Source of the DNA: Candidatus Omnitrophota bacterium
Lineage (GTDB): Bacteria; Omnitrophota; Gorgyraeia; Duberdicusellales; Duberdicusellaceae
Reading direction: 5' to 3'
NCBI GenBank assembly: GCA_016932855.1
Contig: JAFGCB010000064.1
Span: 1,767-65,766, forward strand
DNA: 64,000 nt
Below, piece after piece: positions 1 to 57,361 of the stretch. The notes beneath the pieces were generated by a model, which ran no database searches, was not told the origin of the DNA, and saw only the letters and a list, made by a program, of their open reading frames with translations. The position numbers and the translations under genes are program-made. Every line of letters begins with the position of its first letter. The first letter of the stretch is position 1.

Positions 1-630
1 GCGCCTCAGAGCGAAGATTCAGCCTTTATGCCTCGTAGCCCTTATGCCTGCAGTAAAGTTTATTCCTATTGGATGGCCAAGAACTACCGGGAAGGTTATA
101 ATTTATTCGCCTGCAACGGCGTCGTTTTTAATCACGAAAGCCCCAGAAGAGGCGAAACATTTGTAACCAGAAAAATTACCCGGGCTATTGCTAATATCTT
201 AAAAGGCAACCAAAAAGAACTTTTCTTAGGTAATTTAGACGCGAAAAGAGACTGGGGATTTGCTCCCGAATACGTGGAGGCCATGTATATGATATTGCAG
301 CTTGATACTCCCGGCGATTTTATTATCGGGACCGGAGAGTCTCATTCGGTTAAAGAATTCGTACAGGAAGCTTTTTCTTACGCAGGTTTAGATTGGGAGA
401 AATATGTAAAAATAGATTCCCATTATTTTCGTCCTACCGAAGTAGAAAATCTAATTGCCAATTCTACCAAGGCAAATCAGATATTGGGCTGGGAGCCAAA
501 AATAATTTTTTCTGATTTGGTAAAGATAATGATAGATGCGGATATGCGTAAAGCCGGGCTTACTCCAATAGGCCGGGGAGATAAGATATTGAGCGATAAG
601 TTTCCTAATAAATGGTGGAGCAAAGACTGA
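1..630 (+). CDS. gmd: GDP-mannose 4,6-dehydratase (5'-truncated by window edge)
   Basis: Frame 1 is open from base 1. The C-terminal half matches Gmd hallmarks (…[13 protein letters not shown]…[37 protein letters not shown]…[20 protein letters not shown]…). The stop codon is at 628-630. Confidence 0.85.
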
Positions 631-1574
631 TGAGTTTTTGGGCCAATCGAAGAGTATTAGTGACCGGAGGAGCCGGTTTTCTAGGCTCATTTGTGGTGGA
701 AAAGTTAAAGCAGAGGGGCTGCGAAGATATTTTTATCCCCCTTATTGAAGATTATAACTTGGTAGAAATCGAGGCCGTAAAGCGCCTCTATCAAGATTCA
801 AAACCCGATATTGTTATTCATTTGGCAGCCCAGGTAGGAGGGATTGGGGCAAATAGAGAAAACCCCGGCAAGTTTTTTTATGATAATCTGATGATGGGCG
901 TTCAGATGATTGAAGAGGCTCGTAAGCGCAGCATAGAAAAATTCGTAGCTATCGGCACTATTTGCGCCTATCCAAAGTTTACGCCTCTTCCTTTTAAAGA
1001 AGAGAATTTATGGGACGGATATCCTGAAGAGACGAACGCCCCTTATGGTTTGGCAAAAAAGATGCTCTTAGTTCAGGCCCAGGCCTACCGCCAGCAGTAC
1101 GGCTTTAATACCATTTATCTTCTACCCTTAAATCTTTATGGCCCGCGGGATAATTTTCATCTTGAACATTCCCATGTTATCGCGGCTTTAATCAGGAAAA
1201 TCCACGAGGCTAAAGAGCAAGGCCGGGATTTTATCCAAGCCTGGGGTACGGGTAAGCCGACAAGGGGTTTTTTGTATGTTGAAGACGCATCCGAAGGGAT
1301 ACTTTTGGCTGCGGCGAAATACAACAAGTCCGCTCCGGTTAATCTAGGAAGCCCTATTGAAATATCAATAAAAGATTTAGCCGAGCTGATTTGTAGGCTT
1401 ATGGATTTTAAGGGCCATATCCGCTGGGATACTTCAAAACCCGATGGCCAGCCCCGGCGATGTCTGGATGTAGAGAGGGCTTATAAGGAATTCGGCTTTA
1501 AGGCTAAAATTGGCCTTGAAGAAGGCCTTAAGAAGACTATCGAGTGGTATGAAGCGCATCCTGTGTCTTATTAA
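630..1574 (+). CDS. fcl: GDP-L-fucose synthase (GDP-4-keto-6-deoxymannose 3,5-epimerase/4-reductase)
   Basis: Extended-SDR fold with [12 protein letters not shown]…, YxxxK (PYGLAKK) and [11 protein letters not shown]…SHVI motifs typical of Fcl/WcaG. The ATG at 630 overlaps the gmd stop (TGATG) and has a GGTGGAG SD-like upstream. An alternative in-frame ATG lies at 612. Confidence 0.8.
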
Positions 1575-1650
1575 GAGTAGCCACAGAGGTTAAGGCGTAA
1601 GGTAAAGGCATCTGAGGATTTGAGCAGGTAAAAAACACATGAGGTAGCTT

Positions 1651-2586
1651 ATGAACAGTATATTAGTTACAGGCGGAGCCGGTTATATCGGTTCGGTTAT
1701 GGTGCCGTATTTGTTAGAGAATAATTACCGGGTGACTGTAATCGATAATTTCATGTATAACCAGGCTTCTCTTTTGGATTGTTGTTACCATAATCAGTTA
1801 AAGGTTATACGAGGGGATGTGCGCGACAGAGAGTTGTTAAAAGAGGCGCTTAAGACAGCAGATTTTATACTTCCGTTTGCTTGTTTGGTCGGTGCTCCCT
1901 TGTGTCTAAAGAGGCCTAGCGAGGCAGAAGCGGTAAATCGCGATGCCATAGAAGACATTTTGCGACTGCGAAGCAGAAGTCAGCGGATTATCTTTCCTAC
2001 TACAAATAGCGGCTACGGCATAGGCCAAGACGATGTTTATTGCACTGAGGAGACTCCTCTTTGTCCCATCTCTTTATATGGCAAGCTTAAAGTCGAGGCG
2101 GAAAAGATACTTTTAAATTCAGGTAATGTTATTACCTTGCGTCTGGCTACTGTCTTTGGTATAAGCCCCCGGATGAGGCTTGATCTCTTAGTTAATGATT
2201 TTGTATACCGGGCTGTGCGGGATAATTATATAGTTCTTTTTGAGTCTCATTTCAAGCGAAACTATATTCATATACGGGATGTTGCCAGGGCGGTCTTGCA
2301 TTGCATAAATAATTTCAACAGCATGAAGGATGAGCCCTATAATCTAGGTTTAAGCGATGCTAATCTTTCGAAGCTTGAGCTTTGTCAAGAGATAAGAAGG
2401 CACATAACTACTCTACAGATCATGGAATCGTCAGTGGGTCGGGATCCCGATAAAAGAAATTATATAGTTAGTAACGCAAAGATTGAAAGGACCGGCTTTA
2501 AGCCGCAATTTAGCTTATCGGCGGGTATTGCCGAGCTAATAAAAGGGTACCAGATTATAAGAAATAATTCTTTCACTAATGTTTAA
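1651..2586 (+). CDS. NAD-dependent sugar epimerase/dehydratase (extended SDR)
   Basis: ILVTGGAGYIGS Rossmann motif; YGKLK catalytic YxxxK; ~310 aa extended-SDR length. The substrate is not inferable. Confidence 0.7.
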   Translation: MNSILVTGGAGYIGSVMVPYLLENNYRVTVIDNFMYNQASLLDCCYHNQLKVIRGDVRDRELLKEALKTADFILPFACLVGAPLCLKRPSEAEAVNRDAIEDILRLRSRSQRIIFPTTNSGYGIGQDDVYCTEETPLCPISLYGKLKVEAEKILLNSGNVITLRLATVFGISPRMRLDLLVNDFVYRAVRDNYIVLFESHFKRNYIHIRDVARAVLHCINNFNSMKDEPYNLGLSDANLSKLELCQEIRRHITTLQIMESSVGRDPDKRNYIVSNAKIERTGFKPQFSLSAGIAELIKGYQIIRNNSFTNV

Positions 2587-2616
2587 CATACGATTATTAT
2601 GCAGGATAGAGGTAGT

Positions 2617-3702
2617 ATGAAAATTCCCTGGGCAAAGCCTTATATCGGTCGTTCCGAACTTGAGGAAGTCAAGGCTTGCTTTGACCGTAGCTGGCTTTCT
2701 ATGGGGCAGAAGGTCGAGGAATTAGAAGAATTTGCTTCGGGTATCGTTGGTTCTTCATACGGGGTAGCTGTTAATTCCGGTACTGCTGCTTTGGATATTG
2801 CTTTAAAGCTTATAGGAGTTGGTCCCGGGGATGAAGTTATTGTTCCTGCTTTAGCTTATATCGCTACGGCAAATGCCGTGCTTTACCAGCAGGCTAGGCC
2901 TGTCTTTGCCGATATCGATGAAAAGAGTTACTGTATTTGTCCCAAATCAGTTGAACATAATATTACCGATAAGACTAAAGCCGTGATCGCTATAGATTAT
3001 GCCGGCCAGGCTCCGGACTATAACGCTTTAAGAGATGTTTTGGGAAAAAGAGGTATTTTTTTAATTGAAGATGGCGCTCCGGGATTAGGTGGCAGTTATC
3101 GAGGAAAGCCTCTTTGTTCAAGAGGTGATGTAAGTATAACCAGCTTTCATATGGCCAAGATATTTACCTCGGTTGAGGGTGGTATGCTTTTTACCGATAA
3201 ACAGCAGTGGGACGCAGTAGCTAGGATGATTCGTTCACAGGGGGAAGACCCTTCGCTAAAATATCACCATCCTGTTTTGGGTCATAATTACAGAATGAGC
3301 GATATATACGCGGCAATAGGCTTAGAACAGCTTAAAAGATTCGATGCTGTCCTAAATAAAAGGGCGGTTTTAGCTCAGCACTATTCGCAGGGCCTTTCAA
3401 GCCTTAATTCAATGGTTTTACCTAGAGTTCTGGACGGCAATAAACATGCCTGGTTTCTTTATCCGGTTTTAGTTTCTGACCGGGATAAAATCGCTGCCTT
3501 GCTTAAAGCTGAAGGCATAGAGACTAATATATCCTGGCCAATGCCGGTATATGAACAAAAGATTTATAAACAATATTTCAAAGAGGAATGTTCCGTAGCC
3601 AAGAGGATTACCCAGACTGTACTGTGTCTTCCGATTTATTATGAAATGACCGAGGATGAACAGGATTACGTGATTGATACTCTTGTAAGCCTTTTACGAT
3701 AA
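2617..3702 (+). CDS. DegT/DnrJ/EryC1/StrS-family PLP sugar aminotransferase
   Basis: WLSMGQKVEELE…NSGTAALDIAL… and a conserved lysine region (SFHMAKIFTS); ~360 aa. The start at 2617 has a GAGGT SD upstream. An upstream in-frame ATG at 2599 is an alternative. Confidence 0.75.
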   Translation: MKIPWAKPYIGRSELEEVKACFDRSWLSMGQKVEELEEFASGIVGSSYGVAVNSGTAALDIALKLIGVGPGDEVIVPALAYIATANAVLYQQARPVFADIDEKSYCICPKSVEHNITDKTKAVIAIDYAGQAPDYNALRDVLGKRGIFLIEDGAPGLGGSYRGKPLCSRGDVSITSFHMAKIFTSVEGGMLFTDKQQWDAVARMIRSQGEDPSLKYHHPVLGHNYRMSDIYAAIGLEQLKRFDAVLNKRAVLAQHYSQGLSSLNSMVLPRVLDGNKHAWFLYPVLVSDRDKIAALLKAEGIETNISWPMPVYEQKIYKQYFKEECSVAKRITQTVLCLPIYYEMTEDEQDYVIDTLVSLLR

Positions 3703-3713
3703 CGGGGGAGTGT

Positions 3714-4796
3714 ATGGCGGATAGCCAAGGAAATACGATTACAATAGGTGGCAGGATTGTGGGCGAGGCAGAGCCGGTATTTATCATTGCCGAGGCAGGA
3801 GTTAATCACAACGGAGATATTGAATTAGCCAAGAGACTCGTAGATATCGCAAAAGAATCTGGAGCTGACGCCGTAAAGTTTCAGACTTTTAAAACCGAGA
3901 ATATCATTATCCCCAGCGCTCCTAAATCAACCTACCACATTGAAACTACAGGCGCAGAACAGTCCTGGTTTGAGCTTTTGAAGACCCAAGAATTAGACAA
4001 AAAGGCCCACCGGATATTATTTGAATATTGCAAAAAAAGAGAGATTGTATTTCTTTCGACTCCTTACGATGAGGAAAGTGCTGATTTATTGGAGGAGCTG
4101 CCGGTTTCCGCCTTTAAAGTCGCTTCTACCGACGCGAATAATATCCCTTTTTTAAGATACTTGGCACGGAAAAGACTTCCTATTATTTTGTCTACGGGGA
4201 TGTGCACTCTTGGGGAGGTTAGAGAAAGCGTGGAAGCAATAAAAAGCGAAGGTTGTCAGGATTTGATGCTCTTACATTGTACCGCTGACTACCCGGCCAA
4301 GCTAGAAGACGCCAATCTTCGGGCTATGTTGACACTAAAGAATGAATTTAATCTGTTAGTAGGCTATTCTGACCATATTCCAGATTGTATCAATCCTATT
4401 GCGGCAACAGCTTTAGGAGCGCGGGTGTATGAAAAACATTTTACCTTGGATAAAAGCCTGCCGGGGCCAGACCACAGAGCGTCCTTAAACCCTAAAGAGT
4501 TGAAAGAATTAGTAGATAGTATAAGGAAGACAGAAGCGGCCCTTGGTTCTTCCGTGAAAAAGTGTACTTCTGCAGAGCAAGAAAATAGAATAAAACTGCG
4601 AAAAAGCATTTTAACTAAGGTAGATATCCCTAAAGATACCCCAATTGATAGTTCTATGATAGAGATTAAAAGGCCGGGTTTTGGATTGGAACCAAAATAT
4701 TATCATTCACTTATAGGCAAAAAGGTCCGTAATTCGCTAAGTTCCCATGCTCCTATTACCTATAACGATATTATATGGGAGGATTTGGATGAATAG
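3714..4796 (+). CDS. NeuB-family nonulosonic acid synthase (sialic/legionaminic-acid-synthase-like) with C-terminal SAF domain
   Basis: N-terminal PVFIIAEAGVNHNGD…GADAVKFQTF… and HCTADYP… motifs of the NeuB/PseI/LegI TIM-barrel; C-terminal SAF-like tail. A GGGGGAG SD precedes the ATG. Confidence 0.8.
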   Translation: MADSQGNTITIGGRIVGEAEPVFIIAEAGVNHNGDIELAKRLVDIAKESGADAVKFQTFKTENIIIPSAPKSTYHIETTGAEQSWFELLKTQELDKKAHRILFEYCKKREIVFLSTPYDEESADLLEELPVSAFKVASTDANNIPFLRYLARKRLPIILSTGMCTLGEVRESVEAIKSEGCQDLMLLHCTADYPAKLEDANLRAMLTLKNEFNLLVGYSDHIPDCINPIAATALGARVYEKHFTLDKSLPGPDHRASLNPKELKELVDSIRKTEAALGSSVKKCTSAEQENRIKLRKSILTKVDIPKDTPIDSSMIEIKRPGFGLEPKYYHSLIGKKVRNSLSSHAPITYNDIIWEDLDE

Positions 4797-5526
4797 GCTT
4801 CCGGAGCAATTTAAAAACTCTGGCTTTGAAGATAAGATTAAAGCTGTAAGAAGTTTAGAAGCTCAACGAGATCATCAAGGTGACATGTATAAAAAACCGC
4901 TCAATGCAAAAAGAAGAGAAATGATTAAAAGCTTATTAAAGGAATTTGTGAAGCAAAAGAAATTTATGGAGATTGGATGTGCGGAAGGGTTTTATTGCGG
5001 ATGTGCGGCAGAATATGGCGCCCTAAGCGTTACGGGAATAGACCTTGTGGCTAAAAAGCTCAATGAGGCTAAGAGAAGATACCCGGGATGCAAGTTTGCC
5101 TTAGCAGATGCTACAAAAATTGCGATAGATGACGATAAATTTGACCTGATATTATGTTCAGAGGTTCTTCAGCATTTAGTAGATTATGACGAATGTTTAA
5201 ATCGAGCGTGCGGGTTATTGAAACCCGGAGGTATTTTAGTTATATCCGTGCCTAATCTTTCTCTTTCTAGCGAGCATGAATTTGCCAATGTCTCTGAGGA
5301 TATGGAACCAGAGGAGCTACTCCATGAGATTGGAGGAGCCAGTTATGGGAAGCAAAACGCGCTCTGGAAGTTTAACACAGAAAAATTAAGTGAAGAAATA
5401 AGTTCGAACTACCCGTTGCAATTGATTGATTTTATAAAAGTTGGAGCACCACCCCTTAAGCATCAAACAGCAGCCCAGGCTGAAAATATTTTTACTATTC
5501 TCGTTTATAAACGGCGGTCAGACTGA
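4789..5526 (+). CDS. class I SAM-dependent methyltransferase
   Basis: MEIGCAEGFY… glycine-rich SAM motif I and an acidic motif II (DLILCSEVLQH). The internal ATG at 4789 overlaps the upstream stop by 8 nt. The longer ORF from 4747 would run deep into the neuB-like gene. Confidence 0.6.
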   Translation: MNRLPEQFKNSGFEDKIKAVRSLEAQRDHQGDMYKKPLNAKRREMIKSLLKEFVKQKKFMEIGCAEGFYCGCAAEYGALSVTGIDLVAKKLNEAKRRYPGCKFALADATKIAIDDDKFDLILCSEVLQHLVDYDECLNRACGLLKPGGILVISVPNLSLSSEHEFANVSEDMEPEELLHEIGGASYGKQNALWKFNTEKLSEEISSNYPLQLIDFIKVGAPPLKHQTAAQAENIFTILVYKRRSD

Positions 5527-5546
5527 TATTCAAAATATTTAATTCT

Positions 5547-6410
5547 ATGTCGGTTTTTGTATCAACGACATTTATGCCTAGTCAAAGCCCGGTAAGGCAG
5601 GCAATTGGTATGCTTAAGAGTATAGGTGTTTGTAATATCGAATTAGGTTCTATCCATTGTTACGAAGAAGGCTTGATTTCTTTTCTTAAACAACAAGGCA
5701 GTAATTACCTTATGCATAATTTCTTTCCGCCTCCCCAAGAACGCTTTATATTAAACATCGCTTCGGTTGATGAAGGGGTGCGTAGAAAGAGCCTTGACTT
5801 TATTCGAAATTCAGTTGATGTGGCCGAAGAGATTGGTTGCCGGATATACACAATTCATCCGGGGTTTATTTCTGATCCCGAAGCTGAGAGTGCTTCTTTG
5901 GACAATTATGATTTTCAGTTTGCCTCAAGTACCCTTTCTAAAGAGCTGCGGCAGAAGTCATGGGATAATTTCTTTGCTTCGTTGATAGATATTTCTTTTT
6001 ATGTCAAGGGCAAGAAGATAACAGTAGCTCTAGAGACCCAAGGGTCGGTTTCCAAGAAGGATTTTATGCTTTTTTCTACCCTTAAGGATTTTTTTTCTTT
6101 TCTAAACGATAGCCGAGCCGATAACATCGGCGTTAATCTTAACCTGGCGCATCTGAATCTTTCTTCAAAGGCCTGGGGGTATGATATGTTTAGGGCAATA
6201 GATATGCTAAAGCCGAGGATAAAAGCGGTTGAAGTAAGCCACAGCGATAGTTCAAGAGACAGCCATCAGGCTTTAGCTAAAGATGGATGGTATATAGACT
6301 TATTAAGGGATGATTTTTTTAAAACCGTTGCAGTTATTTTTGAAGGGCGTGATTTATCCTTGACTAAAGTAGAACAATCATATCAAATTTTAAACGATGT
6401 CTGTGGATAA
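5547..6410 (+). CDS. sugar phosphate isomerase/epimerase (xylose-isomerase-like TIM barrel)
   Basis: ~287 aa. The pattern of conserved acidic/His residues (…IHPGF…, …ALETQG…, …NLNLAHL…) resembles the AP-endonuclease-2/xylose-isomerase-like fold. This is a weak family-level call. Confidence 0.45.
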   Translation: MSVFVSTTFMPSQSPVRQAIGMLKSIGVCNIELGSIHCYEEGLISFLKQQGSNYLMHNFFPPPQERFILNIASVDEGVRRKSLDFIRNSVDVAEEIGCRIYTIHPGFISDPEAESASLDNYDFQFASSTLSKELRQKSWDNFFASLIDISFYVKGKKITVALETQGSVSKKDFMLFSTLKDFFSFLNDSRADNIGVNLNLAHLNLSSKAWGYDMFRAIDMLKPRIKAVEVSHSDSSRDSHQALAKDGWYIDLLRDDFFKTVAVIFEGRDLSLTKVEQSYQILNDVCG

Positions 6411-6465
6411 AAAGGATTCTTTATTGTCTGAGAAGAGGCTCGAACATAAAGAGGAAGAGCTTAAT

Positions 6466-7848
6466 ATGAAAGCGCGAAAGAAGAGGATTATTTTGCCTCA
6501 GAAGGCTAGCATAAAGGAAGTAATGGATACGATTAACCAGGTACCTTTGGGGCTTGTGGTTTTGACCGATGATGATAAGGTTCTTAAGGGAGTCGTTACC
6601 GATGGCGATATCCGAAGAGGTCTACTTGATGGTATTTGTCTTGATGAGCCGATAGAAAGAGTTATGAACACAAGCCCGGTTGTTGTGCGTAGGGGATATA
6701 GCAGTAACGAGATACTTCGTATGTTTAGTGAGCAGATAAGACGTATTCCTGTGGTTGATGAAGAGAACCGGGTCGTGGATATTGTGTTCTACGAAGAATT
6801 TCGCAATCTGCATAAAGGCGAGAAAAAAGTTATTGTTCGAGGCAGGGCTCCTCTTCGGATAAGTTTTGCCGGAGGCGGTACCGACGTAAATCCCTACATC
6901 GAAACCCGAGGTGGAGTGATATTAAGTACCACTATAAATAAGTATTGTTTTGTGACTTTGGAGAAGCGAACCGATAAAAAAATTACCATTCATTCGAGCG
7001 ATTACAATCTTACGGTTGAATCCGAAAATCTTGAAGATTTAAAGTACGATGGAGAATTAGATCTTATAAAGGCGGTTATAAAATTAATGCATCCTTCTTT
7101 TGGTATGGATCTATGTCTTTATTGCGACGTTCCTCCTGGTTCCGGCCTGGGAGGTTCAGCGGCAGCGGCAAGTGTTACCGCCGGTGTTTTAAATCATCTG
7201 CGCCATAACAAACTTGATGAATATCAATTGTCTGAACTGGCATTTCAAGCTGAGCGGGTAGAACTTGGAGTAGCCGGTGGCTGGCAGGATCAGTATGCGG
7301 CCGTATTCGGCGGTTTCAATTTTATGGAATTTAAGAAAGAAGATGTTATCGTCCATCCTTTAAGGATTAAAGAAGATATTCTCAATGAATTAGAATCGAG
7401 CTTACTTATCTGTTTTACCGGCAAGACGAGAAATTCAGGCCGGATAGTTGAATCCCAGACAAAGTCATATCTTTCGAATAAGATGGTTGTGGTTGACGCT
7501 TTACTTAAAACCAGTGATTTTGCCATTCAGATGAAGAATACTCTTTTGAAAGGTAACCTTATTAAATTCGGCAAGCTTCTGCATCAGGCCTGGCTAGTCA
7601 AGAAGAAATTCGACAGTAAAGTCTCCGACCCTTTCATCGATAGCCTTTATGAAGCCGGGATAAGCGCCGGGGCCATAGGCGGGAAGATCTTAGGGGCAGG
7701 CGGAGGCGGATATATTCTATTTTTCTGTCCGCATTTAAAGAAAATCGCTATAGCCAAAGCCTTGGAAGAGGCCGGAGGAAAGATCATGAATTTTAATTTT
7801 GATTTTCGCGGTCTTCAAACCTGGATGGTTCAATGCCATGATGAATAA
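6466..7848 (+). CDS. CBS-pair domain fused to GHMP-family sugar kinase (heptose-7-P-kinase-like)
   Basis: The N-terminal ~120 aa look like a CBS pair (…PVVDEENRVVDIV…). A GHMP kinase follows (APLRISFAGGGTDV…, PPGSGLGGSAAAASV, GAGGGGY glycine-rich C-terminus). The start at 6466 has a GGAAGAG SD upstream. The longer ORF from 6397 lacks an SD. Confidence 0.7.
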   Translation: MKARKKRIILPQKASIKEVMDTINQVPLGLVVLTDDDKVLKGVVTDGDIRRGLLDGICLDEPIERVMNTSPVVVRRGYSSNEILRMFSEQIRRIPVVDEENRVVDIVFYEEFRNLHKGEKKVIVRGRAPLRISFAGGGTDVNPYIETRGGVILSTTINKYCFVTLEKRTDKKITIHSSDYNLTVESENLEDLKYDGELDLIKAVIKLMHPSFGMDLCLYCDVPPGSGLGGSAAAASVTAGVLNHLRHNKLDEYQLSELAFQAERVELGVAGGWQDQYAAVFGGFNFMEFKKEDVIVHPLRIKEDILNELESSLLICFTGKTRNSGRIVESQTKSYLSNKMVVVDALLKTSDFAIQMKNTLLKGNLIKFGKLLHQAWLVKKKFDSKVSDPFIDSLYEAGISAGAIGGKILGAGGGGYILFFCPHLKKIAIAKALEEAGGKIMNFNFDFRGLQTWMVQCHDE

Positions 7849-8584
7849 AGTACCAATTCTTATTCTTGCCGGAGGCCTGGGCACAAGACTTAAGGCCTTA
7901 GTGCCTGATATACCTAAGCCTATGGTTGCCTTTAGGGGTAAGCCTTTTCTTGAGTATCAGATAGAGTATGTAAAGAATAAGGGTTTGGATAATATTATTC
8001 TTTGTATTTCTCATTTAAGAGACTCTATCATCGATTATTTTAAAGACGGCAAAGAACAGGGAGTTAGTCTTAGATATTCAATCGAGCCACAGCCTTTAGG
8101 TACGGCTGGAGCGATAAAGAAAGCGGCTGAAAGCTTCGATTTGCCCGATTATTTTTTTGTAATAAACGGAGACACTTTCGTTGAATGGCAGCCGAGCAAG
8201 CTTCTTAGAGTCTTTTTAAAGACAAAATCAAAGATAGTTCTTGGGCTTAGCCGGGTTTCCGGCCGGGATGTATCAAGGGTTGAGACGGCAGATGACGGTA
8301 AGATAATCTTTTATAAAGAAAAAGCTTTAGTTGCCTCTAAAGCAGCAAAAGCGGCTTATTCAGGCGCCGGCGTCTATGTTATAGCCAGGGATTTATTTAA
8401 GCTATGGCCTGAAAAGAGGCTTTCGCTGGAGTATGATTGTATCCCCAGATTAGTTTCCCAGGGCAGGGCTTACGGCCTTCTCCTCGATTCAGAGGTTTAT
8501 GATATAGGCACGCCCGAGAGGCTTAAAGTCTTTGAACGGTTTTTAGTTTCTCAGAGGGACGGGATTTTGTCATTTAGAAGATAG
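7838..8584 (+). CDS. sugar-1-phosphate nucleotidyltransferase
   Basis: ILAGGLGTRLK…PKPMV signature of NDP-sugar pyrophosphorylases; ~248 aa. The ATG overlaps the upstream stop. The ORF extends upstream to 7799 but that part lies inside the kinase gene. Confidence 0.7.
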   Translation: MMNKVPILILAGGLGTRLKALVPDIPKPMVAFRGKPFLEYQIEYVKNKGLDNIILCISHLRDSIIDYFKDGKEQGVSLRYSIEPQPLGTAGAIKKAAESFDLPDYFFVINGDTFVEWQPSKLLRVFLKTKSKIVLGLSRVSGRDVSRVETADDGKIIFYKEKALVASKAAKAAYSGAGVYVIARDLFKLWPEKRLSLEYDCIPRLVSQGRAYGLLLDSEVYDIGTPERLKVFERFLVSQRDGILSFRR

Positions 8585-8632: not shown

Positions 8633-9373
8633 ATGAAAGTGGTATTAATAATTCAGGCCAGGATGGGTTCAACCAGACTTCCGGGAAAATCAATGCTTGA
8701 TTTGGCCGGCGCTCCTTTAATCGCCAGGCTCATCGAACGGGTAAAAAGAGCCGGTGGTCTCGAGGCGATTGTCTTAGCCACGACTGTTAAAACCCAAGAC
8801 GATGTGCTTAAAAGGATAGCCGATGATTACGGCATTTTTTCTTTTCGAGGCTCGGAGAATGACCTTGTTGACCGTTATTATCAAGCAGCCAAGGTTTTCA
8901 AGGCGGATATTATCGTCCGCCTGCCGGGTGATAACCCGGTTGCGGAGCCCGGAGAAATTGACCGGATTATTGAATATCATAGAAAAGGCTTAAGTGATTT
9001 TTCTTCTAATATTATGCAGGTAGATAACAACGGTTATCCTGACGGTATCGGCGCCGAAGTTTTTAACTTTGAAGTTTTAGAGGATGTCTGGCGCCGGGGT
9101 GGTAATCCTAGCCAGCGAGAGCACCTTGCTACGAATTTCTATGATTACTTCTCCCAGAAGGCCGTATATCCTTACAGGTATAGAATAGGTACAGTAGAGT
9201 GTCCGCAGAGTTTCAGGCGTCCGGATTTGAAGTTAGATGTAAATACCGCAGAAGAATATGAGTTTATGCGTAATTTATATGAGTATTTATATTCCCGAAA
9301 TCCTCAGTTTCATATAACTGATATTATAAAATGGTACGATGAAATATTTATAAAACAAAGCCTAAGGAGATGA
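8633..9373 (+). CDS. CMP-nonulosonate (acylneuraminate) cytidylyltransferase family, SpsF/NeuA/LegF-like
   Basis: IIQARMGSTRLPGK… N-terminal motif of the CTP_transf_3 family; ~246 aa. Confidence 0.7.
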   Translation: MKVVLIIQARMGSTRLPGKSMLDLAGAPLIARLIERVKRAGGLEAIVLATTVKTQDDVLKRIADDYGIFSFRGSENDLVDRYYQAAKVFKADIIVRLPGDNPVAEPGEIDRIIEYHRKGLSDFSSNIMQVDNNGYPDGIGAEVFNFEVLEDVWRRGGNPSQREHLATNFYDYFSQKAVYPYRYRIGTVECPQSFRRPDLKLDVNTAEEYEFMRNLYEYLYSRNPQFHITDIIKWYDEIFIKQSLRR

Positions 9374-9375
9374 TT

Positions 9376-10362
9376 ATGCAAGAGAAAGGACGCGTAGTTT
9401 ATTGGAACGGAGAATTTATACCCGAGCAAGAAGCCCGAATTTCTATCTACGACTCGGCCTTGATGTTCGGGGATATGATTTTTGAGATGACCCGCTCCTT
9501 TAATAAGAAACACTTCAAGCTACGCCAGCATTTGGAAAGACTCTATACAGGAATTAAGATTTTACGGGTTCCTATATCTATGACCATTGATGAAATGGAA
9601 GAAGCTGTTTACAGAACAGTTGAGGCTAATGAGCCGGTATTTGCCGATGATGATGAGCATAGAGTTATGATTGATGTCTCCAGAGGCCTGCTTTCTCTTT
9701 ACCAAGGTGTTGTGGGAATCCCTCCCGGGCCTAATGTTATTATTGCTGATTTTCCCCTGCGCTGGACAGTAGCCGGCTGCGGACATTTATATGATGAGGG
9801 AATAAAGTTAGTGATTTCATCCCAAAGAGCGATTCCCGCCCATTTAATTGAACCAAAGATTAAGAATAGAAGCCGTCTCTTTTATCTAATGGCAAACATT
9901 GAAGTCTCCAATTACAAAGGTAGCAATAACTGGGCTTTGTTACTTGATCCCGACGGGTTTATCGCTGAAGGCACAGGAAGCAATTTTTTTATGGTAAAAG
10001 ACAATGTTATTTACACTCCCGAGGGCCGTAACATATTACGGGGCATTACCCGGGCGACTGTCATGGATGACTTAGCTCTCAAGCTGGGCATTAGGTGCGT
10101 GGAGAAGAATCTTGAGACTTATGACGTGTATACTGCTGATGAGGTTTTTCTTACTTCAACGCCTTTTTGTATTCTGCCGGCAACATACTTTAATGGAGTG
10201 CCGATAGGTGACGGTAAGCCCGGTGAAATAACCCGACTTCTTTTAAATACCTGGAGCAAAATTGCAGGGCTGGATATCGTTGAGCAGATTAAAGGCTGGG
10301 ATAAGAAAGAACAAACTAAAGACCCCAACGCGCCTTCGCCCTATCAATTTAAAGCTCGCTAA
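9376..10362 (+). CDS. class IV (fold-type IV) PLP aminotransferase, BCAT/D-amino-acid-aminotransferase-like
   Basis: WNGEFIPEQEARISIYDSALMFGDMIFE… start typical of fold-type IV enzymes; ~328 aa. GGAG SD is 7 nt upstream of the ATG at 9376, which overlaps the upstream stop region. Confidence 0.6.
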   Translation: MQEKGRVVYWNGEFIPEQEARISIYDSALMFGDMIFEMTRSFNKKHFKLRQHLERLYTGIKILRVPISMTIDEMEEAVYRTVEANEPVFADDDEHRVMIDVSRGLLSLYQGVVGIPPGPNVIIADFPLRWTVAGCGHLYDEGIKLVISSQRAIPAHLIEPKIKNRSRLFYLMANIEVSNYKGSNNWALLLDPDGFIAEGTGSNFFMVKDNVIYTPEGRNILRGITRATVMDDLALKLGIRCVEKNLETYDVYTADEVFLTSTPFCILPATYFNGVPIGDGKPGEITRLLLNTWSKIAGLDIVEQIKGWDKKEQTKDPNAPSPYQFKAR

Positions 10363-10417: not shown

Positions 10418-11269
10418 ATGAGCAATATTAAGACAGCTGTTAATCGAGTAGGCATTATGCAGGGACGTTTAAGCCCTATGATCGACGGCAGGATACAAGT
10501 ATTTCCGGCTAAGACCTGGAGAGAAGAATTTATTTTGGCCAAAGAATGCGGTTTTGAGCTCATTGAATGGGTTTTTGACGCTGTTCAATGGCAGGATAAC
10601 CCGATTTTATCATCTTCACAGCGTAGGCAGATTATTCAATTACAGAAAGAGTGTAAGGTTTGGGTTCCGGCTGTTTGCTGTGATTACTTCATGGAATATC
10701 CTTTGTCTAGCCCTGTTTTAGAAGAGAGAGAAAAAAGCCTTACGGTATTAAAGGACATAATCCGAATATGCCCTGAGCTGGGGATACAATACGTAGAACT
10801 TCCTTTTTTAGGTAAGGCAGAAATCAAAGAAGAATACGCGCAGACTATCATCGTGGAGTTACTCAGCGGCCTTGTTTCTTTAGCCGAAGAAAATAATGTT
10901 TACATTTTATTGGAGTTAAGCCTTTTGCCTCGCCAGGTTTACGGCCTGCTTAAGAGATTATCCTCACGGCGTATCCAGCTTAATTATGATACCGGTAATA
11001 GTGCTTATTGGGGCTATGACCCTAAAGAGGAATTCTCTCTTTACGGGGGGCGTATAGGAAATATCCACATCAAAGATTGCACCAAAAAAGACTATAGCCT
11101 GCCTTTAGGAGAGGGAGAGGTTGATTTTGATCTTGTATTCTATTTGCTTAAGAAGATAAATTACCGGAAAGATTTTATCTTGCAGACTGCCCGGGGTGAT
11201 GATGACTCAGGTCTTGCAAAGAGGTTCTATGAGTTTACCAGTTCCTATATTAAGGAGTATTTAATATGA
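10418..11269 (+). CDS. sugar phosphate isomerase/epimerase (xylose-isomerase-like TIM barrel), paralog 2
   Basis: ~283 aa. It resembles UlaE/hexulose-6-P isomerase-like TIM barrels (…ELIEW…, …YVELPFL…, …HIKD…). Family-level call only. Confidence 0.45.
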   Translation: MSNIKTAVNRVGIMQGRLSPMIDGRIQVFPAKTWREEFILAKECGFELIEWVFDAVQWQDNPILSSSQRRQIIQLQKECKVWVPAVCCDYFMEYPLSSPVLEEREKSLTVLKDIIRICPELGIQYVELPFLGKAEIKEEYAQTIIVELLSGLVSLAEENNVYILLELSLLPRQVYGLLKRLSSRRIQLNYDTGNSAYWGYDPKEEFSLYGGRIGNIHIKDCTKKDYSLPLGEGEVDFDLVFYLLKKINYRKDFILQTARGDDDSGLAKRFYEFTSSYIKEYLI

Positions 11270-12036
11270 GATTAGGTTTAGAGAAAAAAGTCTTTATAGT
11301 ATCGGGTTCCAGCCGGGGTATAGGCAAGGGGATAGCTAAAATATTGTTAGAAGAAGGAGCCTGTGTTGTGCTTACCGGCAGAGAAGAAAAATCCTTAAAA
11401 GCTACTTTCAGGGAATTTTCTTCTTTGTTTAAAGGCCGTCTTCTAGAGCAGGCCGGCGATTTAAATACAACTTCAACTCTTAAGAAACTTAGACAAAAGG
11501 TCTTAAAAAAATGGGGAAGGATTAACGGCCTTGTCGCCAATGCCGGCGGGGTAAAGCCGGTTAAGGAACTTTTTATCTCTGATTCTGACTTTAAGTGGTA
11601 TTTTCAAGCAAACTTTGAATTGGCCCGCAGGTTTGTAACTTACTTTATTGAAGACATTAAAGAGACAAAAGGAGCGATTGTTTTTATAAGCTCCATAGCA
11701 GGGCTTGAGGATGTCGGCGCCCCGCTTGCATATAGCGCGGCTAAGGCAGCCCTTGGGGTGTATGCCAAAGGTTTATCCCGGAGGCTTGCTTTCGAAGGTA
11801 TCCGGGTAAATACCGTGGCTCCCGGTAACATTTTGTTTGCCGGAGGCAATTGGGATAAAAAACAGAAAGCTAATCCCGAAGCAGTTAAGAAGATGCTTAA
11901 GGAGAAAGTTGCCTTACGATGTTTCGGAAGCCCGGAAGATATCGGAAATATCGTGGCTTTTCTTCTTTCAGAGAGAGCTGGTTTTATAACCGGAAGTTGT
12001 TTTGTAGTCGACGGAGGCCAAACCCTAAAAATGTAG
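11266..12036 (+). CDS. SDR-family oxidoreductase (FabG-like)
   Basis: FIVSGSSRGIGKGIA Rossmann motif; S…YSAAK catalytic triad spacing; ~256 aa; ATGA overlap with the upstream gene. Confidence 0.7.
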   Translation: MRLGLEKKVFIVSGSSRGIGKGIAKILLEEGACVVLTGREEKSLKATFREFSSLFKGRLLEQAGDLNTTSTLKKLRQKVLKKWGRINGLVANAGGVKPVKELFISDSDFKWYFQANFELARRFVTYFIEDIKETKGAIVFISSIAGLEDVGAPLAYSAAKAALGVYAKGLSRRLAFEGIRVNTVAPGNILFAGGNWDKKQKANPEAVKKMLKEKVALRCFGSPEDIGNIVAFLLSERAGFITGSCFVVDGGQTLKM

Positions 12037-12045
12037 AGGTAGATT

Positions 12046-12909
12046 ATGGATATGTCAAAACTATCCCAGCCGGAAAATTCGGTTAAGAAACAATTTGATT
12101 TATCAGGAAAGAATATTTTGATTACGGGAGGCGCTGGTTTCCTCGGCAGATTCTTTTGCGAGGCTGTTAGCGAAATGGGCGGTTTTCCCATTATTTTGGA
12201 TATTGACCGAGAAGCCCTGAAAGAGGCGCGTAAGCATCTTTCAAATCAGAATTTTAAAAGCGACGGCTATCTTCTTGATTTGACCGATGCTTCCGCGGTA
12301 CAAAGGACCGTCGATACTATTATTGAAAAATATAAGACTATTGATGTATTAATCAATGCCGCCGCCTTCGCCATGAAGAACCTTAAACAAGGCGGTCCAG
12401 AATTTTTTGCTTCTTTCGAAGAGTATAAAAAAGATTTATGGCAAATAAGTCTCGATGTTAATCTTACCGGGACCTTTCTTATCACCCAGGCCGTAGGCAG
12501 GATAATGAAGCTTAAAAAAAAGGGAGTGATTATAAATGTGGCATCTGACGTTGCTGTCGTCTCTCCTGACCACAGGATTTACCAGCCTGATGAGCGTTTT
12601 GACTATAAAGGGGTATCTTTCAATACGCCTTTAAGTTATGCCGTGGCTAAAGCGGGGATTCTTTCCTTTACGAGGTACTTAGCTACCTATTGGGCTAAAG
12701 ATGGTATCCGGGTAAATTCCGTTTCATTCTCAGGCGTTTACCGTAATCATGACCCGAAGTTTGTGGAGCAACTTTCTTTTCGTATTCCTTTAGGGCGAAT
12801 GGCTTTTCCTCAGGAATATAAAGGGCCTATTGTATTCTTGGCCTCAGAAGCTTCTTCGTTTATGACTGGGGCTAATTTAGTTATTGATGGAGGTAGGACC
12901 TGCTGGTAG
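12046..12909 (+). CDS. SDR-family oxidoreductase
   Basis: [13 protein letters not shown] glycine motif and YAVAK catalytic YxxxK. Confidence 0.65.
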   Translation: MDMSKLSQPENSVKKQFDLSGKNILITGGAGFLGRFFCEAVSEMGGFPIILDIDREALKEARKHLSNQNFKSDGYLLDLTDASAVQRTVDTIIEKYKTIDVLINAAAFAMKNLKQGGPEFFASFEEYKKDLWQISLDVNLTGTFLITQAVGRIMKLKKKGVIINVASDVAVVSPDHRIYQPDERFDYKGVSFNTPLSYAVAKAGILSFTRYLATYWAKDGIRVNSVSFSGVYRNHDPKFVEQLSFRIPLGRMAFPQEYKGPIVFLASEASSFMTGANLVIDGGRTCW

Positions 12910-12930: not shown

Positions 12931-14319
12931 ATGAAAGTCTTATTGGTAGTTTACGATAATGCTTCCTATATACATACATTCCCTCAAGGCACAGCCTATA
13001 TAGCGGCGGTATTGCAAAAAGAAGGACACCAGGTCAGTATTTATAATCAGGATGTCTATCATTATCCTGACGAGCATTTAACAGGATATTTGAATGAGAA
13101 TAAGTTCGACCTTGTCGGCCTGGGAATAATAGCCGGTTATTACCAGTATAGAAAACTTTTAGCTATTTCCCGGGCAATAAATAAGTCAAAAAACAGGCCC
13201 CTCTATATTTTAGGAGGCCATGGGCCTTCGCCTGAGCCGGAATATTTTTTGAAAAAAACCAGGGCTGATATCGTGGTTATTGGCGAGGGAGAAGAGACGA
13301 TTGTTGAGCTGCTTAGGGCAAAGGTTAAAGGTTCTTCTTTGAAGCCGGTTAAAGGAATCGCTTTTCGCCAGGGTGAGAAAGTAACGGTAAATGAGCGAAG
13401 GCTTCTCATAGCTGATGTAGATTCCTTGCCTTATCCGGCCTATGATTTGTTTCCTATTGAGTATTACCGGCTGATACGGGAGATGCACTCTACAAACAGT
13501 GACTTTGTGATGCCTGTTTTGTCCGGTCGGGGATGCCCTTTTCATTGTAATTTTTGCTACCGAATGGATGAAGGTTTTAGGCCTCGAAAAATAGAAGCGA
13601 TTATCGATGAGATTGAATTACTAAAAAGGAAGTATCTTATTAATTATATCGGTTTTTCCGATGAGCTTTTGATGTCATCGGTTCAGCGTACCGAAGATAT
13701 CTGCCGGGCATTTATTAAAGCTAAGCTTAATATCAAATGGTATTGTAATGGTCGTCTTAACTATGCTAAACCTGGTCTACTTAAGTTGATGAAGCAGGCA
13801 GGTTGCGCTTTCATTAATTACGGGATTGAGGCCGTGGATGACGAAGTGCTTAAGAATATGAGGAAGGTCTTAACAGTAAGGCAAATAACCGAAGGTATTG
13901 AGAATACTCTTAAGGCAAAGATAAGCCCGGGATTTAACATAATCTTCGGCAATATCGGGGACAACAAGAAAACCCTTAAAAGAGGCGTAGAGTTTTTATT
14001 GAAATACGACGACGCGGCTCAGATGCGGACCATTCGGCCGGTAACGCCTTATCCGGGTTCGCCTCTTTATTATTATGCTATTGAAAAAGGCCTCTTAAGA
14101 GACTGCGAGGATTTTTATGAAAACAAACACTTAAACTCTGACTTATTGGCGGTTAATTTCACCGACTTAAGCGATGAAGAATTTCACTGCTCTCTTATGA
14201 GGGCCAATATGCGTCTTCTTAAAAACTATTTTCGGAAAAAGCTTTTAAGTGTTACTTGGCAGTGTGAAGATCTTTATTTAAACCGTAATATTAATTTTAG
14301 GGGTTTTCGAAAAGTATAG
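12931..14319 (+). CDS. cobalamin(B12)-binding radical SAM enzyme (class B), paralog 1
   Basis: N-terminal B12-binding-like Rossmann region (LLVVYDN…LVGLGIIAG…ILGGHGPS). CxxxCxxC radical SAM cluster motif (RGCPFHCNFC) about 200 aa in. Confidence 0.75.
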   Translation: MKVLLVVYDNASYIHTFPQGTAYIAAVLQKEGHQVSIYNQDVYHYPDEHLTGYLNENKFDLVGLGIIAGYYQYRKLLAISRAINKSKNRPLYILGGHGPSPEPEYFLKKTRADIVVIGEGEETIVELLRAKVKGSSLKPVKGIAFRQGEKVTVNERRLLIADVDSLPYPAYDLFPIEYYRLIREMHSTNSDFVMPVLSGRGCPFHCNFCYRMDEGFRPRKIEAIIDEIELLKRKYLINYIGFSDELLMSSVQRTEDICRAFIKAKLNIKWYCNGRLNYAKPGLLKLMKQAGCAFINYGIEAVDDEVLKNMRKVLTVRQITEGIENTLKAKISPGFNIIFGNIGDNKKTLKRGVEFLLKYDDAAQMRTIRPVTPYPGSPLYYYAIEKGLLRDCEDFYENKHLNSDLLAVNFTDLSDEEFHCSLMRANMRLLKNYFRKKLLSVTWQCEDLYLNRNINFRGFRKV

Positions 14320-14348
14320 TAAAAGATGTGTAAAAAAGGAGAGAGGTT

Positions 14349-15362
14349 ATGATTTTAAAAGACAAGGTTATTTTAGTAACTGGGGGTACTGGTTCATTTG
14401 GAAACAAGTTCGCGGAAATAGTATTAAATAGGCATCGTCCTAAGAAGCTTATTATTTTAAGCCGCGATGAGTATAAGCAGCATCGAATGGCCAAGACTTT
14501 TCCCGAGGAGCGGTATCCTATCCGTTATTTTCTGGGAGATATCCGCGACCGCTACCGGCTTTTTCGGGCTTTTGAAGGAGTCGACTATGTTGTTCATGCC
14601 GCGGCTCTAAAGCAGGTGCCGGCTTTAGAGTACAATCCCACCGAAGCGGTAAAGACAAACGTTATCGGCGCGGACAATATTGTTGACGCGGCGATTGATG
14701 CCGGCGTTAAAAAAGTCATTGTTATTTCTACCGATAAGGCGGTAAACCCGGCTAATCTCTATGGAGCGACCAAGCTGGTTGCTGAGAAAATATTCGTCGC
14801 TGCCAATGCTTATGGCGGAGGTTCGGTAAAGTTTTCGGTGGTGCGCTATGGTAATGTTATCGGCTCACGCGGAAGCGTAATACCTTTATATTTGCGCTTA
14901 AAACGCGAGGGTATAAAATTATTCCCCTTGACCAGCAAAGACATGAGCCGTTTCTGGATTACTTTGGACAAAGGAGTAGAGCTAGTGCTTAAAGCAATAG
15001 AAGAATCCGAAGGGGGTGAGATTTTTGTTCCTATGTTGCCCTCGATGCGGATTGTGGATTTGGCAAAAGCAATAGAGCCTTTATGTACGTTTAAGATAAT
15101 CGGCATACGGCCGGGAGAAAAGATTCATGAGACTTTAATATCAGAGACTGAAGCGCGCAAGGCTAAAATATTCGGCGACGCCTATGTTATTTTGCCGCAA
15201 TTTCTTGACTCTGAGAATGTCCGCACAAAATACGAGCAATATCCCTTTGTTCCCGAAGGGTTCAGTTATGAAAGTGATAAGAACCAGTGGTATCTTGAAG
15301 CCGAAGAATTATCAGAGATGTTCAGTCAGCCTCAGGTAGTCCCAGAAGTGGAGAAAGTCTAA
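14349..15362 (+). CDS. pseB: UDP-N-acetylglucosamine 4,6-dehydratase (inverting)
   Basis: ILVTGGTGSFG, YGATKLVAEK and the MSRFWITL motif characteristic of PseB/FlaA1; ~337 aa. Confidence 0.85.
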   Translation: MILKDKVILVTGGTGSFGNKFAEIVLNRHRPKKLIILSRDEYKQHRMAKTFPEERYPIRYFLGDIRDRYRLFRAFEGVDYVVHAAALKQVPALEYNPTEAVKTNVIGADNIVDAAIDAGVKKVIVISTDKAVNPANLYGATKLVAEKIFVAANAYGGGSVKFSVVRYGNVIGSRGSVIPLYLRLKREGIKLFPLTSKDMSRFWITLDKGVELVLKAIEESEGGEIFVPMLPSMRIVDLAKAIEPLCTFKIIGIRPGEKIHETLISETEARKAKIFGDAYVILPQFLDSENVRTKYEQYPFVPEGFSYESDKNQWYLEAEELSEMFSQPQVVPEVEKV

Positions 15363-16513: not shown

Positions 16514-16577
16514 AGGAAATTACGCAGACTGCACCGCTTGTAAAACTTAAGGAAATAAAAGCAGCAAGTAGAAGAGT

Positions 16578-17330: not shown

Positions 17331-17332
17331 AT

Positions 17333-18334: not shown

Positions 18335-18350
18335 GCTTAAGGAGGATTAC

Positions 18351-21036: not shown

Positions 21037-21051
21037 TAAACATAAAAGTAT

Positions 21052-52155: not shown

Positions 52156-52156
52156 C

Positions 52157-52194
52157 AAATCCCAAATCCCAACGGGTTTTGGATTTGGGATTTG
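52157..52194 (+). terminator. stem-loop (14-bp perfect stem) immediately 3' of the E1-alpha gene; possible intrinsic terminator/attenuator or RNA-processing site
   Basis: caaatcccaaatcc (52157-52170) pairs perfectly with ggatttgggatttg (52181-52194); the loop is caacgggtttt. There is no clear U-tract, so function is uncertain. Confidence 0.35.
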
Positions 52195-52209
52195 ATAAAT
52201 AGAGTAAAT

Positions 52210-57349: not shown

Positions 57350-57361
57350 AGGAGGTTTTCG

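Follow-up and report, generated by a model that had tools for sequence, protein, structure and literature searches.

A gene at 6466-7848 in a 64,000-nt stretch of Candidatus Omnitrophota DNA (contig JAFGCB010000064.1, positions 1,767 to 65,766; hereafter the window) encodes an N-terminal CBS pair and a GHMP sugar kinase in one protein. We found that this kinase belongs to a widespread subfamily of heptokinase-like enzymes that share the fusion, and that members of the subfamily are mostly encoded beside NeuB-family ulosonic acid synthases. The reading we favour, at a probability of roughly 0.5, is that a CBS-gated HddA-type kinase and an adjoining HddC-type nucleotidyltransferase would together feed a GDP-heptose-like sugar into a NeuB/CMP-transferase pathway.

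The CBS pair and the kinase domain

The mechanically called open reading frame (ORF) spans 6397-7848 on the + strand and encodes 483 aa. Alignment with 32 homologues of 451-474 aa places the conserved N-terminus at M24 of that frame, the ATG at 6466, which defines a gene at 6466-7848 with a product of 460 aa, and a Shine-Dalgarno-like stretch, AGAGGAAGAG, lies 7-16 nt 5' of this ATG. We discarded the upstream starts ATG 6397 and TTG 6424 because the homologues begin at the position matching 6466; the CBS pair stays within the protein whichever of the three starts applies. A start at 6466 had already been proposed in an earlier model-made reading of the same DNA (the first-pass annotation), and the coincident N-termini of the homologues bear it out, placing the start ahead of the CBS pair and not downstream of it. 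A 26-kb Logan contig (L001, from SRR13394437) carries the same gene set, with a kinase 100% identical across the 460-aa query; the identical Logan protein (P0001) is 474 aa long, a length implying the TTG start (window 6424), and this gene call probably starts 14 codons too early.

The same annotation had proposed a CBS pair and a GHMP kinase in one protein, and a Pfam scan and an AlphaFold2 model agree on this. In the product of 6466-7848, Pfam found CBS (PF00571, E 1.7e-13, above the gathering score) in two stretches, GHMP_kinases_N (PF00288, E 5.3e-18, 65.5 bits against a cut-off of 22.3) and GHMP_kinases_C (PF08544, E 9.3e-8, 32.8 bits against a cut-off of 21). The full-length model, built from 64 homologues, has a mean pLDDT of 91.2 and is uncertain solely at the linker formed by residues 111-120 (pLDDT 61). 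Residues 1-121 modelled separately reached a pLDDT of 90.5 and gave 387 PDB matches at E<=0.001, with 3k2v as the top match; all 50 PDB matches listed are CBS pairs or CBS-containing proteins. The secondary structure of this model agrees with two tandem repeats of the beta-alpha-beta-beta-alpha type. Profile and structure prediction are thus both positive for a CBS fold in the N-terminal ~120 aa.

By sequence and predicted fold, the kinase domain is nearest to the heptokinases HddA and WcbL, with the catalytic residues kept. A PDB sequence search matched it to the Burkholderia pseudomallei heptokinase WcbL (4usm, E 3.5e-77) and to the HddA-type structures 3k85 from Bacteroides thetaiotaomicron and 4n3o from Campylobacter jejuni, and Foldseek placed the model on WcbL 4usk with a TM score of 0.92 (E 3.8e-37), as expected of a GHMP fold. 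The GHMP phosphate-binding motif (PxGSGLGSSA) reads PPGSGLGGSA in this kinase, with G227, G229 and S231 invariant. WcbL residues R13, D22, Q162 and D163, which were picked for mutagenesis and matter for activity (PMC4691232), align with R131, D140, Q274 and D275, and all four are invariant in 64 family members. To the shared fold and the identical R, D, Q and D residues can be added an HddC-like nucleotidyltransferase next door. The differences are that HddA and WcbL lack a CBS pair, that in the loci sampled their gene neighbours are GmhA and GmhB, never NeuB, and that the window kinase falls in a separate clade. The best NCBIfam model for the kinase is HddA (NF049969), aligned over profile positions 2-338 of 338, and the score of 285.1 bits lies below the equivalog cut-off of 600 bits, so that we do not class the protein as an HddA equivalog. 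The bifunctional L-fucokinase/GDP-fucose pyrophosphorylase FKP (9iit, 5yys) resembles the pair in joining a GHMP anomeric kinase and a GTP-dependent nucleotidyltransferase in one chain, a likeness that extends to 680-aa triple fusions within the CBS-kinase family, but it lacks the CBS pair, serves salvage by acting on a free sugar and is only ~23-25% identical to the window kinase.

The most conserved residues of the CBS pair (G42, T45, D46, G47, D48, I49 and R50) match the ribose-binding motif G-h-h-T-x-x-D. They lie in CBS1, which carries GVVTDGDIRR, and the stretch G42-V-V-T45-D-G-D48 shows at least 90% conservation within the family. CBS2 has no G-h-h-(T/S)-x-x-(D/N) motif, and at most one canonical ligand site is therefore expected in the pair. 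By profile, the nearest relatives are the KpsF/GutQ/KdsD arabinose-5-phosphate isomerases of the Kdo pathway (TIGR00393, 54.8 bits); only profile positions 170-267, the CBS part, match, and the SIS domain is absent from the kinase protein. The structures 3k2v, 4o9k and 3fna rank near the top when the pair is compared by fold and by sequence, and in the last two, which are KdsD CBS pairs, GVFTDGDLRR stands opposite the CBS1 motif. Both groups thus share the TDGD(I/L)RR motif, and in each case the CBS pair sits on what would be the first committed enzyme of an ulosonic-acid pathway; in KdsD, KpsF and GutQ, however, the catalytic domain is an SIS isomerase that precedes the CBS pair and not a kinase.

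The first-pass annotation had read the fusion as regulation by adenylate or another ligand, and sensing of this kind is plausible from the intact motif. Given that the nearest CBS relatives are Kdo-pathway isomerases, a nucleotide-sugar ligand appears at least as likely as AMP, ATP or S-adenosylmethionine (SAM). End-product sensing has been suggested for the KdsD CBS pair in the Kdo pathway, and 4o9k is, we presume, the CMP-Kdo-bound form; by analogy, end-product sensing by the pair described here is only a lead. The same CBS subtype also occurs on a range of other proteins, among them a Maf/MptE-like protein with a nucleotidyltransferase domain (P0221), NDP-sugar dehydratases/epimerases (P0206, P0219, P0256) and a GT2 glycosyltransferase (P0155), and it looks like a regulatory module that can be carried by different enzymes of nucleotide-sugar and glycan biosynthesis.

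As the first-pass annotation had stated, a nucleotidyltransferase is the next, overlapping gene. It overlaps the kinase stop by 11 nt (ATGATGAATAA); its best NCBIfam match is HddC (NF049965, 134.8 bits) and its best PDB matches are 6jq8 and 5xhw, named '6-deoxy-D-mannoheptose pathway protein'. The comparison drawn there with PtmE (Cj1329), in which the CBS pair sits on the nucleotidyltransferase, proved apt in that the same CBS subtype occurs fused to an NTP-transferase in the PtmE-like order (P0220, CBS then nucleotidyltransferase, 355 aa). The two systems would also share the making of a nucleotide-sugar at the entry of a nonulosonic acid pathway, PtmE being, in the legionaminic acid pathway of Campylobacter, the guanylyltransferase that acts on GlcN-1-P and is specific for GTP (PMC5378307). 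They differ in that no kinase is involved with PtmE, whereas here it is the kinase that bears the CBS pair, and the nucleotidyltransferase is a separate protein that carries none. All three domains are united in one chain in 16 of the 120 best matches described below.

Distribution of the fusion and the genes that accompany it

The architecture had been called uncommon in the first-pass annotation, which does not hold. We took the 120 best matches from a collection of 5.8 billion proteins, all at E<=1e-121, and found both CBS and GHMP on record in 108; most of the remaining 12 have a similar length of ~450 aa. The nucleotidyltransferase-CBS-kinase triple fusions, P0035 and 15 others, are 560-740 aa long, and in P0035 the nucleotidyltransferase occupies residues 2-228, with CBS from 234 and GHMP following. 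When residues 1-200 were searched against representatives at 50% identity, a single match stretch covered the CBS pair and part of the kinase, junction included, in at least about 94 of the best 150, counted by hand. Finally, in a survey that took one genome per species (GTDB), a full-length CBS-kinase was present in 28 of the best 80 species-level loci, spread over Bacteria and Archaea. The archaeal carriers belong to the Pace-, Woese- and Nanoarchaeota, and the bacterial ones include Nitromaritima, Sediminibacterium, Bacteroidia, Puniceicoccaceae, Burkholderiales, Rubrivivax, several Bradyrhizobium, Algibacillus, Pseudomonas chlororaphis, P. fulva, Stutzerimonas and Phytopseudomonas. A search of 72,556 plasmids returned 109 records, all of them CBS-less kinases adjoining GmhA or HAD genes. 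The CBS fusion is a minority form among HddA-like kinases, yet widespread. In a neighbour-joining tree of the kinase domains only, rooted with the CBS-less window kinase at 56381-57349 as a distant outgroup, all 33 CBS-bearing kinases formed one clade.

What sets this clade apart is its gene company. Comparing the neighbourhoods within 10 kb of the 28 CBS-kinase genes and the 52 CBS-less ones among the 80 species-level loci, we found NeuB in 23 of 28 loci of the first kind and in none of the 52 of the second. The same held for the second TIM barrel of the window cluster, TIM2 (18/28 vs 0/52), and for its two short-chain dehydrogenase/reductase (SDR) genes (SDR1, 19/28 vs 0/52; SDR2, 18/28 vs 0/52), and in about 20 loci NeuB lies directly downstream of the CBS-kinase. 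In Bacteria and Archaea alike, the CBS-kinase subfamily serves as a near-perfect marker of one particular kind of NeuB gene cluster, for sialic-acid-like sugars.

Several arrangements of this cluster recur. In Sulfurimonas and related contigs the order is nucleotidyltransferase, CBS-kinase, a NeuB::TIM-barrel fusion, SIS, CTP_transf_3 and aminotransferase, followed by a VOC protein, a methyltransferase, a TIM barrel and SDRs. In a marine archaeon (L004) a TIM barrel is followed by a nucleotidyltransferase-CBS-kinase fusion, a CTP_transf_3-HAD fusion, an SDR, a DegT aminotransferase, NeuB and a PglD-like acetyltransferase; the DegT protein of the window (2599) is 54% identical to its counterpart there. 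NeuB::AP_endonuc_2 fusions of ~630 aa occur in many relatives, for instance at 11359-13248 in L002, 11361-13250 in L003, 11359-13248 in L006 and 11332-13224 in L064, and the window, unlike these fused relatives, keeps NeuB (3714) and the TIM barrel TIM1 (5547) as separate genes. A cytidylyltransferase similar to the window copy occurs in 5 of the 28 CBS-kinase loci, and Pfam finds CTP_transf_3 in L002, L003, L004 and L006. In L064, from P. chlororaphis PCL1601, two glycosyltransferases of ~950-980 aa, each with GT2, precede the CBS-kinase/NeuB module (55-5874), an arrangement that recalls the flagellin glycosylation islands of pseudomonads.

A putative heptose route to an ulosonic acid, and its rivals

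At the head of the window's NeuB cluster stands an unexpected enzyme. The product of gene 1651-2586 matches PDB 6VO6/6VO8 over its full length (E 6.8e-112, residues 3-310, ~58% identity), structures that we take to be C. jejuni Cj1427, a GDP-heptose C4-dehydrogenase. A role for it as LegB, a GDP-GlcNAc 4,6-dehydratase, was discarded on the strength of this match and of a search that gave no hit on the NCBIfam LegB model at E<=1e-15. Orthologues of gene 1651, 48-57% identical, lie beside the CBS-kinase in L004, L055 and the DPANN loci. Two of these DPANN loci, L010 and L023, hold in succession a gene-1651-like (presumably Cj1427-like) gene, a HAD phosphatase, a nucleotidyltransferase and a CBS-kinase, and NeuB is absent; on these sequence assignments, the gene order is the one expected if a GDP-heptose were made first and then oxidized at C4. 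Septacidin biosynthesis offers a precedent, in which a TIM-barrel epimerase, a VOC epimerase and an aminotransferase act on a 4-keto-heptose (PMC9978623), and the same TIM-barrel, VOC and aminotransferase classes recur in the CBS-kinase clusters. Going by nearest relatives, the kinase, the nucleotidyltransferase and gene 1651 all point to heptose chemistry and not to a GlcNAc-type legionaminic acid (Leg) route.

We propose that the kinase is an HddA/WcbL-type anomeric sugar-phosphate kinase with an N-terminal regulatory CBS pair and that, with the translationally coupled nucleotidyltransferase at 7838-8584, it would form the entry module of the adjoining ulosonic-acid pathway. The distal phosphate would be removed by a phosphatase encoded elsewhere, the GDP-sugar made by the nucleotidyltransferase and its C4 oxidized by the putative Cj1427-like enzyme (1651). 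Tailoring by TIM-barrel and SDR enzymes and transamination by 2599 and/or 9370 would follow, and then release from the nucleotide, condensation with phosphoenolpyruvate (PEP) by NeuB 3714 and CMP activation by 8633. The CBS pair, with its one intact nucleotide-type site, might throttle the first committed step when it binds a nucleotide, free or sugar-linked, which may be the end product of the pathway itself. What the sequence data show is the domain architecture, the family relationships, the conserved catalytic and ligand-motif residues, the fusions and the linkage of the genes; we infer what the kinase acts on, the sequence of reactions, how the GDP-sugar leads to NeuB, and which effector the CBS pair answers to and in which direction. 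Among the window ORFs of at least 150 aa we found no 2-epimerase of the NeuC/LegG type, which is consistent with a precursor that is already manno-configured.

Several observations weigh against a heptose route. No enzyme was identified that would free the sugar from GDP, and NeuB 3714, which would have to accept a heptose-derived aldose, exceeds the N-acetylneuraminate synthase cut-off (421.5 vs 399.65). The window holds no GmhB-like HAD gene and its sole GmhA-like gene is 50 kb off, in a second kinase set, so the phosphatase and isomerase steps must come from elsewhere; across the loci, too, GmhA-like genes accompany 4 of 28 CBS-kinases vs 42 of 52 CBS-less ones, and GmhB-like genes 6 of 28 vs 40 of 52. 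The kinase misses the HddA cut-off, and the model, with its low-confidence linker, is uninformative on how the CBS and kinase domains are coupled. That 6VO6 is Cj1427 is presumed, in keeping with its chain length (321 = 313 + tag) and the molecule name given by the depositor, and the many loci of the Sulfurimonas/Pseudomonas/Bradyrhizobium type lack a gene-1651-like gene. The kinase tree carries no support values, and the Fisher p of 1e-15 for NeuB is overstated, as the loci are not phylogenetically independent, although the pattern itself is nearly all-or-none.

A narrower version of the proposal, which we regard as doubtful, is that the module of CBS-heptokinase, HddC-type nucleotidyltransferase and NeuB would be a route to heptose-derived ten-carbon or higher-carbon CMP-ulosonic acids, with the CBS pair acting as a CMP-ulosonate sensor; a GDP-heptose would undergo C4 oxidation, epimerisation and amination before its release and condensation with PEP. 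A C10 backbone is exactly what the joining of heptose and PEP by NeuB would be expected to give. CMP-activated ulosonic acids with a C10 backbone have been detected by mass spectrometry in Magnetospirillum gryphiswaldense, in a preprint that names no genes for the C10 acid (10.64898/2026.04.20.719630). A C10 backbone might instead arise by C-methylation, through the B12-radical SAM enzymes of the window.

The best-surviving rival, which we consider unlikely, holds that the kinase and nucleotidyltransferase make GDP-heptose or a derivative for a separate glycan residue, while NeuB and the CMP-transferase build an ordinary nine-carbon acid, so that the operon is common to both and the intermediates are not. 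A 64-kb, one-strand glycan island with many independent sugar pathways (gmd/fcl, a full pseudaminic-acid-type (Pse) set, flippases, glycosyltransferases) is the setting in which mere co-location might arise, and both the NeuB score and the lack of a detected GDP-sugar hydrolase joining the two halves fit it. Against this stands the contrast between the kinase clades, since NeuB was never found within 10 kb of a CBS-less HddA gene and accompanies 23 of 28 members of the CBS clade, across phyla and in both prokaryotic domains. Nor did we find, outside the Pse set, an alternative source of NeuB substrate (a NeuC/LegG-type 2-epimerase) in the window.

A rival that we judge somewhat less probable again is a supply of GDP-GlcNAc: the kinase would act at O1 of GlcN(Ac)-6-phosphate and the nucleotidyltransferase would make GDP-GlcN(Ac) after dephosphorylation, the two replacing PgmL and PtmE in an otherwise Leg-type pathway. 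The nonulosonic setting, in which NeuB is joined by a CMP-transferase, a PtmA-like SDR and a DegT protein with a LegC-model score of 242 bits, agrees with such a scheme, as do the guanylyltransferase activity of PtmE, the existence of CBS-nucleotidyltransferase proteins of the same CBS subtype (P0220) and the PglD-like acetyltransferase of L004. Yet DegT 2599 misses the LegC and PseC cut-offs, gene 1651 has no LegB-model match at the threshold given above, and the hydrolysing 2-epimerase that a Leg route needs was not found among the window ORFs of at least 150 aa; moreover, the nearest characterised relatives of the kinase, the nucleotidyltransferase and gene 1651 are each heptose-pathway enzymes.

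Late activation, in which a free higher-carbon sugar is first assembled by NeuB and the tailoring enzymes and only then turned into an NDP-sugar by the kinase and nucleotidyltransferase, in the manner of fucokinase/GDP-fucose pyrophosphorylase, is very improbable: the tight core of nucleotidyltransferase, kinase and NeuB::TIM in most loci, the structural kinship with FKP and the scarcity of window-like cytidylyltransferases (5/28) speak for it, but the DPANN loci that combine gene-1651-like, HAD, nucleotidyltransferase and CBS-kinase genes without NeuB place the kinase upstream of an NDP-sugar oxidase, Pfam CTP_transf_3 does occur in L002, L003, L004 and L006, and ulosonic acids have so far been seen only CMP-activated, according to the SugarBase preprint. 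We retain the heptose route as our preferred reading of the cluster.

The surrounding glycan island and what the subfamily delimits

Nearly all ORFs of at least 150 aa in the window lie on the + strand. The genes of the NeuB cluster and of the second kinase set are listed in Table 1.

Table 1. Coordinates of the NeuB cluster and of the second kinase set in the window
Feature	Position	Strand	Basis
SDR	1651..2586	+	~58% identity to PDB 6VO6/6VO8
DegT-family pyridoxal-phosphate aminotransferase, PseC/LegC-like, below both cut-offs	2599..3702	+	242 bits on LegC model
NeuB-family ulosonic acid synthase with SAF domain	3714..4796	+	PF03102 4e-94; TIGR03569 421.5 vs cut-off 399.65
SAM-dependent methyltransferase	4747..5526	+	Pfam
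Xylose-isomerase-like TIM barrel (AP_endonuc_2), TIM1	5547..6410	+	Pfam
CBS pair (Bateman module), residues 1-113	6466..6804	+	Pfam, model, fold matches, motif
HddA/WcbL-like GHMP sugar(-phosphate) kinase domain, residues ~122-460, then stop	6829..7848	+	NF049969, WcbL matches
HddC-like sugar-1-phosphate nucleotidyltransferase, 248 aa	7838..8584	+	PF00483 E 1.5e-25
CTP_transf_3 cytidylyltransferase, CMP-ulosonate synthetase-like	8633..9373	+	PF02348 4.4e-31
Class IV (branched-chain / D-amino-acid type) aminotransferase	9370..10362	+	62-66% identity in L017, L020, L025
Second AP_endonuc_2 TIM barrel, TIM2, similar to sugar-phosphate 3-epimerases	10418..11269	+	Pfam, NCBIfam
Two SDR oxidoreductases (11266-12036 and 12046-12909, the second PtmA-like)	11266..12909	+	Pfam, NCBIfam
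B12-binding radical SAM enzyme, end of module	12931..14319	+	counterpart 59% identical in L003
Second set: nucleotidyltransferase	55698-56381	+	
Second set: CBS-less HddA-like GHMP kinase	56381-57349	+	
Second set: GmhA-like isomerase, then DUF218 protein	57362-57928	+	

The second nucleotidyltransferase/kinase/GmhA set had been reported in the first-pass annotation as a parallel activated-sugar route, and its presence at 55698-57928 supports two such routes at the level of gene content. Its kinase and nucleotidyltransferase are only 30-31% identical to those of the first pair, and it is thus not a recent duplicate. A separate, complete pseudaminic-acid-type set at 14349-22080 comprises PseB-, PseC- and PseF-like genes, a GFO oxidoreductase, a second DegT gene and a PseI-like NeuB, and within it a PseG-like GT28 domain is fused to GNAT (19489-21036). 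With NeuB 3714 and the PseI-like NeuB, the island encodes two separate ulosonic acid synthases; the cytidylyltransferase at 8633 is 35% identical to the PseF-like gene at 16578. Further content of the island includes gmd/fcl, two flippases and several glycosyltransferases, and a 381-aa protein at 40235-41380, with a weak match to the alpha-2,8-polysialyltransferase family (E 1.9e-7), is a candidate transferase for one of the island's ulosonic acids.

The island also encodes putative tailoring enzymes. Besides the B12-binding radical SAM enzyme that closes the NeuB module, four others lie at 43555-44937, 45018-46439, 58661-60046 and 61227-62759, the five sharing 24-30% mutual identity, and one further radical SAM enzyme lies at 60110-61201; the island's radical SAM enzymes may carry out sugar C-methylation or other radical tailoring. 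The segment 28465-32578 encodes an 836-aa protein that joins an aminoglycoside-3-N-acetyltransferase-like part to an FkbH N-terminal domain and, after it, a MaoC dehydratase and an SDR; the set resembles an apparatus for adding an uncommon N-acyl group, for example glyceroyl or hydroxyacyl. A thiamine-diphosphate enzyme with E1 alpha and beta subunits is encoded at 51142-53211, and in L064 of P. chlororaphis an acetolactate-synthase-like enzyme directly follows NeuB::TIM (13221-15062). The occurrence of thiamine-diphosphate enzymes in sugar clusters is a hint that a sugar may receive a two-carbon branch or have its chain extended.

Since the fusion is not rare, it has little value as an architectural curiosity, and its value lies in what the subfamily delimits. 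This is a monophyletic heptokinase-like subfamily with a built-in sensor domain, and we found no published characterisation of it: our literature search, within the library available to it, returned nothing on the CBS-GHMP kinase architecture, kinases, CBS domains and fusions go unmentioned in a large paper on NeuB phylogeny, and a paper on Halorubrum legionaminic acid mentions no kinase. Databases name its members 'CBS domain-containing protein', 'sugar kinase' or 'heptose-7-phosphate kinase', and these generic names hide the link of the CBS-kinase to a specific pathway, which is a consequence for annotation. The protein is a putatively regulated, pathway-specific paralogue of heptokinase, and the fusion occurs in organisms that can be grown, among them P. 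chlororaphis PCL1601, P. fulva NBRC 16637, Stutzerimonas nitrititolerans GL14, Bradyrhizobium sp. OK095 and Algibacillus agarilyticus. Should the heptose link prove true, the subfamily would open genetic access to the higher-carbon ulosonic acids that were reported recently and a new entry route beside the Neu, Leg and Pse schemes, and it would be the second case, after the Kdo pathway, in which a CBS pair controls the first committed step towards an ulosonic acid.

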